Sequence record: PZ445473.1
Reading direction: 5' to 3' (one strand)
Source: a phage
Length of the DNA stretch: 64,000 nt
A model generated the notes under the pieces. That model ran no database searches, had not been told where the DNA came from, and saw nothing but the letters and a program-made list of their open reading frames with translations. Shown here in pieces: positions 371-55,277 of this stretch. Positions within the stretch are counted from its first letter, which is position 1; each line of letters opens with the position of its first letter. Made by a program: the position numbers and the translations under genes.

Positions 371-1455
371 TGCCACAAGATAATTATATTGACCCGAACG
401 ATTTTAAATCTTTCCTCCAACTGGATGACCTGAAGGGTTCTTTCAAAGAAGAACTTGGTCGATTAGAATCTGAACAAGAACCAGAAGTGGACATTGACGA
501 TGAGTTCCCGGAAAAAGACGGTGACGATTTCGACTTTGATACCGACCTTCTCGGTGAAAGCGATGAGCTTAAGTTCGAAGATGAAGATGGTTGGGAAGAT
601 CGTGACGAGGAAGGCGAAGTCGAACAAGATGAGGAAGAATCTGACGAATCAGACGAAAGTTCTGAAGCAGATGAGGAAGACTCAAGCGATGCAGGATATG
701 GAGATGATTCTGCTGACGGTGAAGGTGAAGTCTTTGATGTAGACTATGAAACCGTTATCACCCTTCCTGATGGACGTGAGATGACTATTGAAGAACTCTC
801 CAATGGCTATCTTACTGGTGCTGATATGGCTGAACGTGAGACTACTCTTCAGCGTCACATGGAAGCATTTGAGGAACGTGTAGTAGGTTTGAAGGATGTA
901 TTAGAATTAGCGTCTTTAGAAGCAGACCGAGTAATTGAAGATTACAACGGTTTTGATTGGGACAAGCTTGCAGTAGAAGATCCTCAAGCATATGTTGAAA
1001 ACAAACGTTTCCTAGAGAAGTATACAGCTCGTCGTAACCAGCTTGAACAGGCTCAGATCCGTATTAAGCAGGAAGCAGCAGCTAAAGAGCAGGAAGCTTT
1101 CCAAGCCAAGAGCATTGAATGTGTTAATATTCTGAAACGTGAGATTCCAAATTGGGATGAAAACTTATATCAAAACTTAATGCAATACGCAATTGACTTA
1201 GGTGCTACTGAAGAAGAAGTATTGAAGGAAAACCGTCCGTCTATTTTCCTAGCCCTTCACAAAGCATACCAATTTGATAAAGGTAAGCAGCAGGTGATGG
1301 CTAAGATTAAACGTCCCGGTGCTCCACGCAAGGTTGTGAAGTCTGATGCTGCAAAGTCTCGCACTTCCAATAAGCCAGACAACGCTAAGGTTGCCAAGGC
1401 ATTCGCAGAGGGTCGCGTTAGTCACGAAGACGCATTCAAATTCCTCGTAGATTAA
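370..1455 (+). CDS. putative scaffolding protein (highly acidic N-terminal half, helical C-terminal half)
   Basis: 361 aa; long Asp/Glu runs (DEEESDESDESSEADEED); sits directly upstream of the capsid gene. Confidence 0.5.
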   Translation: MPQDNYIDPNDFKSFLQLDDLKGSFKEELGRLESEQEPEVDIDDEFPEKDGDDFDFDTDLLGESDELKFEDEDGWEDRDEEGEVEQDEEESDESDESSEADEEDSSDAGYGDDSADGEGEVFDVDYETVITLPDGREMTIEELSNGYLTGADMAERETTLQRHMEAFEERVVGLKDVLELASLEADRVIEDYNGFDWDKLAVEDPQAYVENKRFLEKYTARRNQLEQAQIRIKQEAAAKEQEAFQAKSIECVNILKREIPNWDENLYQNLMQYAIDLGATEEEVLKENRPSIFLALHKAYQFDKGKQQVMAKIKRPGAPRKVVKSDAAKSRTSNKPDNAKVAKAFAEGRVSHEDAFKFLVD

Positions 1456-1496: not shown

Positions 1497-2558
1497 ATGG
1501 CTAATCCAACTTTATTTGTATCGTATGACCAGAATGGTAAAAAACTTTCTTTTGCTAACTGGATTTCTGTTCTGTCCCCTCAGGATACTCCGTTCGTATC
1601 TATGACCGGTAAAGAGTCTATCAACCAGACTATCTTTAGCTGGCAGACCGATGCATTGGCAAGCGTTGACGCTAATAACGCACACGTTGAAGGTTCTCGT
1701 GCGGTTGATGGTGAAATGCAACCTACCGTAATCAAATCCAACGTTACTCAGATTCTGCGTAAGGTTGTTAAAGTTTCTGATACCGCTAACACCACCGCTA
1801 ACTACGGTCGTGGTCGTGAACTGATGTATCAGCTGGAGAAGAAAGGTAAAGAGATCAAGCGTGACCTCGAGAAAATCCTTCTGTCCGGTCAGGCTCGTAC
1901 CGATGTTCTGGCTGACCAATACCTGACTAACTCCGCAACTGATCCTTCAGCTGTTGGTCTGAACGACACCCACGCAGCTCGTAAGACTGGTGCTTTCCAG
2001 TTCCTGTGTGCACACAACGGTGTTTCTGCTGGTGTTGTTAAGAAAGAAAATGGCCCTGCTGATCCGGATACTGGTGCAGTAACTGTTAAAGTTGCACAGA
2101 ATGCTTCTAACCCGACCACTAACGTTGGTTTTGATGAAGCTGATATCTTTGATATGACTCTGCAACTGTACACTGCTGGTTCTGAAGCAGATATCATCAT
2201 GATCAACCCTGCTCATGCTAAGATCTTCGCTGGTCTGCAAGAAAACACTCAGGGTTCACGTAAGCGTATCTTTGAGAACACCAAGCAGTTCATCTACGAA
2301 GTTAACAGCATCACTGACCCGCTGGGCCAGAACTACAAAATCATCGTTAACCGTTGGATGCCTACCGATGCAGTTTACTTCTTCCGTAGCGCTGACTGGA
2401 CTCAGATGGTCCTGCGTGCTCCGAAACGTACTGAACTGGCAAAAGATGGTTCTTATGAGAAGTGGATGATTGAAATGGAAGTTGGTCTGCGTCACCGCAA
2501 CCCTTATGCTTCCGGAGTTCTGTTCACTGCTGCGGGAAAGTTGGATCCGCAACAGTAG
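1497..2558 (+). CDS. major capsid protein (short form)
   Basis: 353 aa ORF after scaffold gene; AGGAG RBS at 1482-1486; followed by an in-register -1 frame Ig-like extension and a terminator. Confidence 0.65.
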   Translation: MANPTLFVSYDQNGKKLSFANWISVLSPQDTPFVSMTGKESINQTIFSWQTDALASVDANNAHVEGSRAVDGEMQPTVIKSNVTQILRKVVKVSDTANTTANYGRGRELMYQLEKKGKEIKRDLEKILLSGQARTDVLADQYLTNSATDPSAVGLNDTHAARKTGAFQFLCAHNGVSAGVVKKENGPADPDTGAVTVKVAQNASNPTTNVGFDEADIFDMTLQLYTAGSEADIIMINPAHAKIFAGLQENTQGSRKRIFENTKQFIYEVNSITDPLGQNYKIIVNRWMPTDAVYFFRSADWTQMVLRAPKRTELAKDGSYEKWMIEMEVGLRHRNPYASGVLFTAAGKLDPQQ

Positions 2559-53182: not shown

Positions 53183-53676
53183 ATACCCTCCAATTAAACA
53201 TTTATATAAGACTTGCTTAGATAAAGATTCAATAAAATAGGGGGAGGGGACGAATCCTCCCTTATCCTATTAATTAGTATTGCATGTAAGACCTAACAAT
53301 CGGTTTCCTTTGTAGGAATAAGCGTTATGCTCATCCAGCACTAAACTCCCGCCCCCTTAGTGGGCTGGGTTATTAAAGGGTAACGCCCTTATGGGCTAGT
53401 TACGTGAATGTTAGTTTGATAGGAGATCTGAAGTCCTATCTCAAAGGACTCTCGTAAGAATCCTTCACGATAAGCTCTTAATATACTAATCCGTGTAAGA
53501 GAAACACTCTCTTAGTTAACTCTGCTTTAGCTCTGTAATAAGCCGTAGAACCTAACAGGCGGCTCTTAACAAAGAACTTGATGTCATTGCTTACGTCTTG
53601 TATTAAACGCTCCTGTACAGCTTCTGAGGAGCTATTAATTGAATCAATTAACACCTTTGTAGATGTGTAATTCACA

Positions 53677-53958
53677 TCACCACTCCTTACCGGTTGTAGT
53701 TGTAGAGCCACCACACCACTGTGCATTAGATAAGGTTTTAGTCTCCTCATCCATTGCTGCACCATTCATGCATGAGATACCATTGTAACGCATATCAATT
53801 TCGCCAGAAGGAACCTTCTCACCTTTATGCCAGCGAGATACACAAATACCTTCCACTGCTACTGCACACCATCCATCAGGACGGCTCTGTACGCAGCCTG
53901 TAAGGGCCACACAGACAATGAAGATACAGATTAAGGATATTACACCACCCCAACTCAT
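53677..53958 (-). CDS. lipoprotein
   Basis: Signal peptide with lipobox LTGC (MSWGGVISLICIFIVCVALTGC); AGGAG RBS. Confidence 0.5.
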   Translation of the reverse strand: MSWGGVISLICIFIVCVALTGCVQSRPDGWCAVAVEGICVSRWHKGEKVPSGEIDMRYNGISCMNGAAMDEETKTLSNAQWCGGSTTTTGKEW

Positions 53959-53977
53959 AACTATCTCCTAATTGATT

Positions 53978-54022
53978 TGGTGCGCCCTACAGGATTTGAA
54001 CCTGTAACCAATAGCTTAGAAG
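53978..54022 (-). pseudogene. tRNA 3'-half remnant (anticodon loop, T-arm, acceptor 3' strand, CCA) lacking a foldable 5' half
   Basis: Minus-strand CTTCTAA GCTAT TGGTT ACAGG TTCAAAT CCTGT AGGGCGC A CCA; no complementary 5' acceptor or anticodon strand upstream. Confidence 0.4.
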
Positions 54023-54056
54023 TAAAACTTCTATCCTTGTAATGAAGTTTTCATTG

Positions 54057-54131
54057 TGGCGTTCCCTCGTGGAATCGAACCACGAATAAGAGCTTAGAAG
54101 GCTCCAGTTATATCCGTTTAACTAAGGGAAC
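54057..54131 (-). tRNA. tRNA-Arg (anticodon UCU)
   Basis: Hand-folded cloverleaf: acceptor GTTCCCT/AGGGAAC, D stem GTTA/TAAC, anticodon stem GGAGC/GCTCT, loop CTTCTAA, T arm CGTGG-TTCGATT-CCACG, discriminator G, CCA. Confidence 0.8.
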
Positions 54132-54137
54132 ATTACA

Positions 54138-54488
54138 ATGAAAACTTGCACAACCTGTCACACCCAAAAGGAAGATTCAGATTTTTACAAGAAAGGAGAT
54201 CGACTTCATTCTATGTGTAAACAATGTTTCAATGCCTACTGTATTGAACGTTGGAGGCAAAGAAAGACTCAAGCGGTTAAAGATTTCGGAGGTAAATGTC
54301 ATGACTGCAATCAAGAATACCCCGATGCAGTCTTTGATTTCCACCACCTAGACCCCTCTGAAAAAGATTTTGATTGGAATAAACTTAGACTCCGATCTAT
54401 TGACTCTATCAGAGAAGAGTTAAGCAAGTGCGTAATGCTCTGTGCTAACTGCCACCGTATTCGTCACATTGATTACCCTATCCATTGA
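54138..54488 (+). CDS. HNH endonuclease-like protein
   Basis: CTTCH...CKQCF zinc motifs, FDFHHLDP and LCANCHRIRH; lone plus-strand gene next to the tRNA. Confidence 0.55.
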   Translation: MKTCTTCHTQKEDSDFYKKGDRLHSMCKQCFNAYCIERWRQRKTQAVKDFGGKCHDCNQEYPDAVFDFHHLDPSEKDFDWNKLRLRSIDSIREELSKCVMLCANCHRIRHIDYPIH

Positions 54489-54562
54489 GCTAAGAGCGCT
54501 TAATTTATTTAGATCATATCTCGCTTGGTGATAGGACCACACACTTTACATTCATACCAACC

Positions 54563-54814
54563 TTAAGCACATGCAGGGAGTGTGATGATTTCAGGTTTAC
54601 CTTCGAACTCTTCAAACAAACCCAAGAATGTAGGGCTATACGTACCAGTACAAACAAACTCATCAAAGAGTTCATTGTATGAGGGCTTAATCTTCCAAGC
54701 CCACACATAGCCCATCTTATCAATTGCAATGTAACGAGTGTTTAGAGGAACAGTCATCATCACACCATCAACTTCGACCACTTTAGTGATTGGTGCAGCT
54801 TGGAAGTTTTTCAT
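54563..54814 (-). CDS. hypothetical protein
   Basis: 83-aa ORF. Confidence 0.4.
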   Translation of the reverse strand: MKNFQAAPITKVVEVDGVMMTVPLNTRYIAIDKMGYVWAWKIKPSYNELFDEFVCTGTYSPTFLGLFEEFEGKPEIITLPACA

Positions 54815-55277
54815 ACTTTACCCTTAATTAAAACAACAAAGGCCACCCGATTGGGCAGCCTTTTTTATTTGTTAACTGTTATAGATCCAATTACCTTGCT
54901 TGTTACGGATAGTGGACATTGCATGAACCCAGAAGCCTTCCAGTTTCAGAGCACCATTAGTTACTGCATCCATACGTTCAGGGCGGTTCATACGTTTGGT
55001 TGATACTTTCATACCTATCTCTCTCTTTGTTAGTGGAGGCATTATTGCCAGTTGATATAGCAGATAACCCTATTAAAAGGACTACCGACTATCTAAACTG
55101 GTGAAGACTCCCTACCCCTAGAGAGTCTCCTGAATCCCAAACCAATATGTACCCCTACATATCGGAAAGTCTACCGAAAATTAACAGGTTTTAGTCTAAC
55201 ACCGGATGTTCGAGCAAGCTCTCCCTAGCGGTGTGGCATATGCCTGATTTAATAAGTTAATGAGGAACACCCTCACA

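Follow-up and report, generated by a model that had tools for sequence, protein, structure and literature searches.

A probable HNH homing cassette that splits the tRNA-Arg(UCU) gene of a phiEco32-like phage and carries a replacement copy

In synthetic Cleave-and-Rescue (ClvR) drives, a nuclease destroys wild-type copies of a useful gene and is linked to a recoded rescue copy that resists cleavage. To our knowledge, the killing of a useful gene combined with the supply of a resistant copy has so far been described only for engineered gene drives. Among phage systems, the endonuclease SegB of T4 cuts transfer RNA (tRNA) genes and drives the inheritance of its tRNA region (PMC2330249), and protein genes split by homing endonucleases are known, such as the mobE/nrdA arrangement of phage Aeh1 and other fractured genes (PMC2988022, PMC2677866). 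The locus described here lies at 53978-54499 of a phage DNA stretch of 64,000 nucleotides (nt; sequence record PZ445473.1), which is called the window. It comprises an HNH endonuclease gene, an intact tRNA-Arg(UCU) gene, and the two ends of a further tRNA-Arg(UCU) gene. The window phage is Escherichia phage JacquesWildberger_Bas92 (PQ850610), a phiEco32-like podophage, and the region is 100% identical to it. The locus is probably a free-standing HNH homing-endonuclease cassette that interrupts the tRNA-Arg(UCU) gene of the phage itself and brings along a rescue copy that is immune.

The resident gene is present in two pieces. Its 3′ remnant (nt 32-76) occupies 53978-54022 on the minus strand and reads CTTCTAAGCTATTGGTTACAGGTTCAAATCCTGTAGGGCGCACCA from 54022 to 53978. 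It comprises the anticodon loop CTTCTAA, the 3′ anticodon stem GCTAT, the variable loop TGGTT, the T arm ACAGG TTCAAAT CCTGT, the acceptor 3′ strand AGGGCGC, the discriminator A, and CCA. Nucleotides 1-31 are absent beside it (53978-54048). Taken as a whole tRNA, this stretch reaches 17.1 bits (E=1.2) with the Rfam tRNA model, which is below the gathering score, so the remnant is not a complete tRNA. The 5′ fragment (nt 1-26) lies on the same strand at 54474-54499, beyond the 3′ end of the HNH gene. Read from 54499 to 54474 it is GCGCTCTTAGCTCAATGGATAGGGTA, which contains the acceptor 5′ strand and the complete D arm, and its GCGCUCU is complementary to AGGGCGC of the remnant.

The empty site is found in phage LAMP, which has an uninterrupted tRNA-Arg gene (GCGCTCTTAGCTCAATGGATAGAGCAGTAGCCTTCTAAGCTATTGGTTACAGGTTCAAATCCTGTAGGGCGCACCA, 73.6 bits) at this locus, flanked as in the window by homologues of gp108 and gp106. 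The gene of phiEco32 is also uninterrupted. The 5′ fragment of Bas92 is identical to nt 1-26 of the LAMP gene at 24 of 26 positions and the remnant to nt 32-76 at all 45, while the flanks of the two phages are 98-100% identical up to both junctions. Because fragments and flanks match LAMP to both junctions, the 451 base pairs (bp) at 54023-54473 took the place of nt 27-31 (GTAGC) of the resident gene. A sequence-only reading of this DNA had correctly recognised the tRNA 3′ piece and its inability to fold as a complete tRNA, and the identity to the orthologous LAMP gene shows that the piece is no chance match. The same reading placed the feature at 53978-54488; the start holds, and the end is too early, as the overlooked 26-nt 5′ partner extends to 54499. 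Its suggestion of a recombination scar to which the HNH gene is relevant is borne out, whereas that of an integration scar is not, the other gene half lying 451 bp away. Nor is the remnant merely a decayed second tRNA, as had been offered; it belongs to the resident gene, which was split by a cassette with an HNH gene and a replacement tRNA.

On the minus strand, the locus consists of the 5′ fragment, the reverse complement of the HNH gene, a 6-nt spacer, the intact tRNA, a 20-nt spacer, GGATAGA, AGTTTTA, and the remnant. The intact tRNA-Arg(UCU) at 54057-54131 (minus strand) encodes its own CCA and is the only tRNA called by ARAGORN in the whole 64 kb (as tRNA-Arg(tct)). It scores 59.3 bits with Rfam RF00005 against a gathering score of 29, in agreement with the sequence-only reading, and is spaced by 34 nt from the homologous part of the remnant on the same strand. 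It is identical to the resident LAMP-type tRNA at only 52 of 75 positions, and shares 90.7% identity with a tRNA-Arg that Klebsiella phage KP12 (Vequintavirinae) has in its tRNA cluster. An open reading frame (ORF) of the same size next to the KP12 tRNA-Arg, KP12_140, was considered and has no homology to the window HNH gene. The D stem of the replacement tRNA is GTTA/TAAC, which makes the 13:22 pair A:T. AGA accounts for 18.5% of the arginine codons in 50 long ORFs of the window, and a tRNA(UCU) is therefore useful to the phage. The corresponding share in phage YF01 is 20.2%, whereas AGA is rarely used in Escherichia coli (PMC9965538).

The HNH gene (54138-54488, plus strand, 116 amino acids) starts 6 nt from the tRNA 5′ end; its place next to the tRNA on the opposite strand had been noted from the sequence. 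It is antisense to all neighbours, since the neighbouring genes and the tRNA are all on the minus strand. The complement of the D arm in the tRNA 5′ fragment supplies its last five codons (Y, P, I, and H with the D before them) and its TGA stop, the stop being the complement of tRNA nt 12-14 (TCA).

The other junction is less regular. A second copy of the D-loop motif GGATAGA is found at 54036 to 54030, followed by the A/T-rich filler AGTTTTA, which replaces the 5′ anticodon stem. The GGATAGA copy, the filler and the anticodon loop of the remnant form a small palindromic hairpin by sequence and RNA folding (GGATAGAAGT-TTT-ACTTCTAAGC; TAGAAGT-TTT-ACTTCTA, 54016-54036). In addition, an inverted repeat with 23-nt arms at 54045-54067 and 54125-54147, which are 87% complementary, adds about 13-15 bp to the acceptor stem of the replacement tRNA (fold z-scores of -5.8 and -6.1 for the two strands). 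On the plus strand the right arm holds a Shine-Dalgarno (SD)-like AAGGGA and the AUG of the HNH gene, and a long plus-strand transcript would therefore sequester the HNH translation start. Such sequestering is a known limit on homing-endonuclease translation in T4, and by analogy with the T4 homing endonuclease genes the repeat may regulate HNH translation (PMC2988022). The 13-15-bp stem is not conserved in two related loci (L090 and L091), so it is not a family feature and is given little weight. As a separate observation, 13 nt around the HNH start (ACAATGAAAACTT, 54135-54147) recur inverted across the new tRNA (54043-54055), where they create a seven-codon minus-strand ORF, MKTSLQG. This copy may be a trace of an inversion or of the entry of the tRNA into the cassette.

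The HNH protein is matched by PHROG 2255, annotated 'HNH endonuclease', with E=1e-31, and its homologue P0111 carries PF01844. Alignments of 26-30 homologues show no variation in four CxxC pairs, FHH, CANCH, and the final His, and all of these are found in the window protein (H69 and H70 of FHH; C102-A-N104-C105-H106; H110; C54xxC57). It has the catalytic His/Asn/His with a flanking CxxC zinc site and conforms to the beta-beta-alpha-metal fold, and its AlphaFold model has a pLDDT of 89.8. These features of the sequence point to an intact HNH nuclease.

Among the kuraviruses the cassette is sporadic. It is found, as a 449-bp insert that is 98-100% identical among the carriers, in only 4 of about 99 related phage records (Bas92, TH38, Ptacy1532, and Ptacy1479), with the intact empty target allele in LAMP and phiEco32, as is characteristic of homing genes. 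In an alignment of the whole locus the cassette is 97-100% identical among the four phages, whereas their flanks are 78-95% identical and contain different extra genes. The 5′ fragments differ by phage (GCGCTCT, GCACCCT in TH38, and GCGCCGT) and resemble the allele of each recipient; an intact tRNA gene of the GCACCCT type is present in another 77-kb phage contig (L051). In contrast, TH38 and the Ptacy phages have exactly the cassette-linked version of the 3′ remnant, which is unable to pair with the 5′ fragment of TH38 and was therefore co-transferred. The T arm of the Bas92 remnant is that of the LAMP allele (TTCAAAT against TTCGAGT), and this reversion looks like the end of a conversion tract inside the remnant. 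The cassette and its adjacent markers thus move together, with identity above that of the flanks and with tract ends. The pattern is that expected of homing by double-strand-break repair.

Relatives of the HNH gene occur in the same setting in other phages. The closest homologues outside the kuraviruses (P0003, P0004, and P0006; 66-70% identity) are from uncultured phage contigs with tRNA clusters and nearby NAPRTase, RtcB, and TerD genes, where the HNH gene is the only one on the plus strand. HNH relatives with 50-70% protein identity have the split-and-replace layout in the tRNA clusters of other, uncultured phages (L089-L092, L094, L100, L101, and L114). The 5′ fragment of these relatives typically ends with ...GGATAGAGCA and is fused to the HNH C-terminus. 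At most of the loci that share the layout, the HNH start is 4-58 nt away from an intact tRNA-Arg(UCU), and there is a 3′ remnant that begins with GGWTAGA. In L090, L091, and L092 only 4-5 nt separate this tRNA, on the opposite strand, from the start of the HNH gene, and the two pieces of another tRNA-Arg(UCU) flank the pair. The minus strand of L091 reads GGGGCATAGCTCAGTTGGATAGAGCA|ATGTGACGAAT, which is nt 1-26 fused to the HNH C-terminus, and after the intact tRNA it continues with GGATAGA-ATTTCAAAA-TCTAAGCCGTGGGTCGCAGGTTCGAATCCTGC...CCA. The stop codon comes from the D-loop TCA in both loci examined, Bas92 and L091. L089 has lost the replacement tRNA and keeps matching fragments (GCCCTGT... 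and ...ACAGGGT), and further loci of the divergent type (L094, L100, L101, and L114) have a tRNA 5′ fragment beyond the HNH stop. In Bas92, L090, and L091 the SD of the HNH gene (AAGGGA or AGAGGA) is the complement of the acceptor 5′ strand of the replacement tRNA, and the two are therefore physically coupled.

A profile-based scan of IMG/VR added 80 loci, and the following counts are over 77 distinct proteins. An intact tRNA-Arg(UCU) is found within 60 nt of the HNH gene in 30 of the 77 loci. Arg(UCU) makes up 30 of the 45 tRNAs within this distance and 5 of the 168 that lie farther away (odds ratio 65, Fisher p 2e-20), so the association is specific. Among the adjacent tRNA-Arg(UCU) genes, 27 distinct sequences fall into a divergent arrangement as in the window (A, 6), a convergent one (B, 8), and two same-strand ones with the tRNA first (C, 10) or the HNH gene first (D, 3). 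A 3′ remnant, a hairpin of the form GGWTAGAA-loop-TTCTAWCC, or both are found upstream of the HNH start at many family loci.

The upstream hairpin recurs in all gene orientations (L095, L096, L099, L102, L103, L108, L109, L110, L114, L116, L119, and L120), and several copies have the T4-late-promoter-like TATAAATA in or next to the loop. It may serve as promoter or operator or as terminator, or may be a relic of the target. A strict regular expression finds it in only 9 of the 77 loci (background of 0.03 per 260 nt), and it is thus documented by examples and not by statistics. Several database homologues have C- or N-terminal tails (ALSN, RDSNP, and GIEPP) that are translated antisense tRNA D or T arms and are probably read-through artefacts of gene calling. 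L090 contains two Rfam tRNA matches of 43.4 and 40.7 bits that are 116-118 nt long (505-622 and 1521-1636, minus strand), which suggests tRNA genes with large insertions in the tRNA cluster of an uncultured phage. Several orphan T-arm and acceptor fragments are present in L091 and L065.

The closest homologues from cultured phages are ORF45 of Felix O1 and the related HNH genes of Felixounavirus, with 51-52% identity. The annotated start of ORF45 (L010, 2456-2848) lies inside a tRNA(UCU)-like element of 79 nt, while the conserved protein begins with MKTCLKC near 2501. In Felix O1 and a Felix-like contig this element is located 19 nt upstream of the true start of the homologue.

The same tRNA gene is also the site of a second nuclease. 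Bas93 comes from the same river as Bas92 and has flanks that are 99.8% identical, with a different cassette at the site. A LAMP-type 5′ fragment (nt 1-27) is followed by a ribosome-binding site on the same strand, an unrelated HNH gene of 149 amino acids (PHROG 14913, 2e-53), and the 79-nt tRNA-like element. This second HNH gene is on the tRNA strand in Bas93 (L002, 2173-2622, minus), YF01 (L173, 766-1215, plus), and FH3 (L174, 499-939, plus). It follows nt 30 in YF01, where another canonical tRNA-Arg(UCU) comes next, and nt 19 in FH3, where the 79-nt element comes next. Two unrelated nucleases share the split-and-replace design on this one gene, and of the circumstantial arguments for the tRNA gene as the actual target this is the strongest. 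Bas94 has the tRNA-like element at the site and no endonuclease gene there. As a side observation, phage Paul has a third HNH gene (170 amino acids, annotated as SPO1-like; L011, 1906-2418, minus strand) just downstream of its tRNA-Arg(UCU) (2448-2525, minus strand), which is a fourth and very divergent type at the kuravirus locus.

The 79-nt RNA gene lies outside the window and is of invariant length. It is present in Bas93, Bas94, TH42, phi92, A7_1, Felix O1, and many metagenomic contigs (L002 and L004, 2083-2161, minus strand; L065, 1208-1286, plus; L063, about 1499-1577, plus; L010, 2404-2481, plus; L067-L088). It has a 7-bp acceptor stem, U8 A9 U10, and a 3-bp CUC/GAG helix that encloses a 5-bp anticodon stem with the loop CUUCUAA (UCU), followed by a bulge CGUUAAYC, a D-loop-like UAAYUGGAGUAU, and a normal T arm. 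There is no D arm in the usual place. The Rfam tRNA model gives 29.7-36.4 bits, and ARAGORN misses the element. Over 19 distinct sequences, 98.9% of the alignment cells are paired and compensatory changes occur in 13 of 20 pairs; none of 500 shuffles reaches any of these measures, and slid registers fall to 36-46% paired. BLAST finds similar sequences in 145 phage records, many of them with partial matches or matches near 80% identity, some of which may be ordinary tRNAs; a few are annotated 'tRNA-OTHER'. They include Felix O1-like and phi92-like phages, Vequintavirinae, and some kuraviruses. Since the element fills the tRNA-Arg slot in some kuraviruses, and no other tRNA is called in the 4.4-4.7 kb around the Bas93 and Bas94 loci, it probably works as an AGA decoder whose D region has been rewired. 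More speculatively, it could be an endonuclease-immune allele. No description of a D-arm-less phage tRNA was found in the literature, the coverage of which was incomplete, and this is absence of evidence only.

A candidate immunity signature is found at nt 22. The split, presumably attacked genes and 21 of 21 distinct control tRNA-Arg(UCU) genes of phages have G22 in the context GGATAGAGC, with GAGC, GAAC, or GTGC as the D-stem 3′ strand. The controls come from an IMG/VR scan with the T-arm pattern of the remnant, which returned nearly only unrelated intact tRNA-Arg genes. In the intact tRNAs of arrangements A and B, A or T is found at nt 22 in 12-13 of 14 (TAAC, AAAC, AAGT, ATTC, and others). 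Next to this position are the insertion site (nt 26/27) and the scrambled stretch of nt 24-31. The HNH protein is hypothesised to recognise or cleave a site that spans about nt 17-32.

The following course of events would connect these features. During mixed infection, the HNH protein would cut or nick the intact tRNA-Arg(UCU) gene of cassette-free relatives near the junction of D stem and anticodon stem. Repair would copy the cassette from the donor, with the tRNA 5′ fragment (or the upstream flank) and the 3′ remnant as homology arms, and crosses would be expected to show homing. The split of its resident gene and the different D stem of its replacement tRNA would make the donor immune, nt 22 being the candidate determinant. 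The replacement tRNA would take over AGA decoding, so that the cassette would both destroy and rescue a useful gene ('cleave and rescue'). A tentative and rather doubtful extension is that two or more unrelated HNH families attack the D-stem/anticodon-stem DNA of phage tRNA-Arg(UCU), each with an immune rescue tRNA, and so drive serial replacement that ultimately leads to the rewired and now widespread 79-nt tRNA, which lacks a D arm at the attacked position and has a D-stem-like helix around its anticodon arm.

Several observations weigh against homing by such a cassette. Simple homing gives no account of the GGATAGA duplication and the scrambled nt 24-31, nor of the A/T-rich filler, the hairpin, the inverted 13-nt copy, and the antisense transcription of the HNH gene. 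A sigma-70 promoter scan finds nothing near the locus for the antisense gene. Pfam (E<=0.1) and NCBIfam give no HNH match for the window protein, its sole Pfam match being a weak zf-RING_14, and Foldseek gives no significant matches. No intact adjacent tRNA-Arg(UCU) is called for about 60% of the family, and the odds ratio and p value of the association are not corrected for phylogeny. The control set for nt 22 was picked by a T-arm pattern and may be lineage-biased.

Other explanations must be compared with the homing cassette. The 3′ halves of tRNA genes are classical attachment (att) sites, and the sequence-only reading had raised an origin of the remnant from host or prophage DNA. Such recombination, or site-specific integration into the tRNA gene, would agree with the acceptor end AGGGCGC-N-CCA, which is common to E. 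coli tRNA-Arg(UCU), and with the 77.9% identity of the whole LAMP-type tRNA to this host tRNA. However, only 35 of 45 positions of the remnant agree with the chromosomal tRNA-Arg(UCU) that E. coli has next to fimZ, and 38 of 45 with an extra tRNA-Arg of an O157:H16 strain, against 45 of 45 for the phage gene, and the missing 5′ part lies 451 bp away. An att site calls for an adjacent integrase and a tRNA 3′ end identical to that of the host, and this combination is not found; no integrase is annotated in the 4.7 kb around the remnant, the part of the window that was screened. The relatives are virulent phiEco32-like phages, and the identical architecture is found in tRNA clusters of unrelated lytic-type phage contigs. 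The comparison indicates that the host likeness of the acceptor end is ordinary isoacceptor ancestry and that the remnant is phage DNA, which makes a host or prophage scar highly improbable. It is equally hard to credit that the split tRNA still functions, with the 451-nt insert as an intron or with pieces that join or anneal in trans. Some bacterial tRNA genes do contain group I introns that carry homing endonucleases, and both tRNA halves persist in many lineages. Yet the gene has lost nt 27-31, which make up the 5′ strand of the anticodon stem, the filler AGTTTTA is unable to pair with GCTAT, and joining the exon ends restores no full tRNA. No intron RNA family of Rfam matches the insert at the gathering threshold or at E<=10, and the ORF is antisense. 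Furthermore, the TH38 5′ fragment (GCACCCT) cannot pair with the co-transferred remnant (AGGGCGC). An intron was therefore rejected on account of the lost nt 27-31 and the lack of an Rfam match.

An HNH gene without tRNA specificity could instead have landed illegitimately in a non-essential spot, after duplication or replacement of the tRNA and decay of one copy. HNH genes are scattered in phage genomes, with four in YF01 (PMC9965538), the GGATAGA duplication and scrambled junction resemble illegitimate repair, and the family members that lack the adjacent tRNA would fit as well. This is unlikely, as most relatives in the divergent arrangement (50-70% identity) share the junction after about nt 25-26, Arg(UCU) is favoured over all other tRNAs of the same clusters by the odds ratio given above, and a second, unrelated HNH gene is found at the same site. 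The recipient-specific alleles of the 5′ fragments imply repeated fresh insertions, which also counts against it. A slightly smaller chance is given to a cassette that is kept mainly for a beneficial tRNA, either resistant to anticodon nucleases or a better AGA decoder, with the HNH gene as its vehicle or amplifier; such a role is compatible with homing. SegB amplifies tRNA genes to escape the Septu defence (PMC13096335), the tRNA(UCU) at this locus was replaced repeatedly by very different alleles, one of them D-arm-less, and AGA usage is high. On the other hand, all alleles keep the anticodon loop CUUCUAA, which disfavours the evasion of an anticodon-loop nuclease, and a beneficial tRNA leaves the fixed split site of the resident gene unexplained. 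A homing cassette with a rescue tRNA is therefore preferred to these explanations.

Two further features lie near the locus or in related phages. A strong intrinsic-terminator-like hairpin (54838-54863, minus strand; 11 bp, 6 GC pairs, and a T run) is located just upstream of the gp108 homologue and is the sole such site in 53600-55000. The motif TAATGTATA, which we take to resemble the phiEco32 late promoter, is absent near the locus and is not enriched in the window. An element of about 120 nt (GGGCTAGTATGGGTGCGGCACC...CTGGTTCGATTCCAGATAGTCCACCA) sits between the tRNA locus and a lipoprotein gene in TH38 (L006, about 1265-1385, minus strand) and YF01 (L173, about 1300-1420, plus strand). It has a tRNA-like acceptor, a T arm, CCA, and a long interior, and is called by no tool.

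If the HNH protein cuts tRNA-Arg(UCU) genes, the cassette would be a selfish element of natural origin by which a useful RNA gene is killed and a resistant copy provided. What appears in annotation as an oddity of a tRNA, a pseudo-tRNA, and an HNH gene becomes a mobile unit whose borders are exact, whose empty site is known, and whose predicted targets can be tested. Homing of this kind would, if true, explain why the single tRNA of phiEco32-like phages varies between near-identical genomes. A conserved, non-canonical tRNA(UCU) that standard tRNA finders overlook is also uncovered. Bas92, Bas93, and Bas94 of the BASEL collection, together with the published phage LAMP, are a ready experimental system. 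In the literature covered, which was incomplete, there is no description of a homing cassette that interrupts an RNA gene while bringing a resistant substitute, nor of isotype-specific linkage.

Compared with known systems, the locus is closest in setting to T4 SegB. Both are free-standing endonuclease genes among phage tRNA genes. SegB recognises tRNA-gene DNA (the TpsiC motif) and drives its own co-inheritance with neighbouring tRNA genes, and its homologues are statistically associated with tRNAs. SegB is a GIY-YIG enzyme and lies between genes, whereas the window protein is an HNH enzyme whose gene splits a tRNA gene and whose cleavage is predicted. SegB homologues show no isotype preference (PMC13096335), while the window HNH family is tied to tRNA-Arg(UCU). 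The described SegB unit does not have a resistant replacement tRNA, unlike the window cassette. The Aeromonas phage Aeh1 gene mobE is, like the window gene, a free-standing HNH gene that splits another gene, in that case nrdA. Both nrdA protein fragments reportedly reassemble and stay functional. In contrast, the split RNA gene of the window appears to be dead, and its function would come from a second, divergent copy in the cassette. Integrative elements that target tRNA genes resemble the cassette in their target, in the tRNA piece duplicated at the border, and in the preservation of tRNA function. They differ in having an integrase and att sites and in restoring the same gene, whereas the cassette has no integrase, brings a whole alternative tRNA, and leaves both old fragments in place. 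Felix O1 ORF45 and the Felixounavirus HNH genes likewise lie inside a tRNA cluster, 19 nt downstream of a tRNA(UCU). Their HNH gene is, however, on the tRNA strand and is partnered by the D-arm-less tRNA(UCU) of 79 nt, and no split resident gene was seen beside it. The logic of the locus is that of the synthetic ClvR drives, from which the window version would differ in being natural, phage-borne, directed at an RNA gene by a putative cleavage, and able to home into the site that it cuts.

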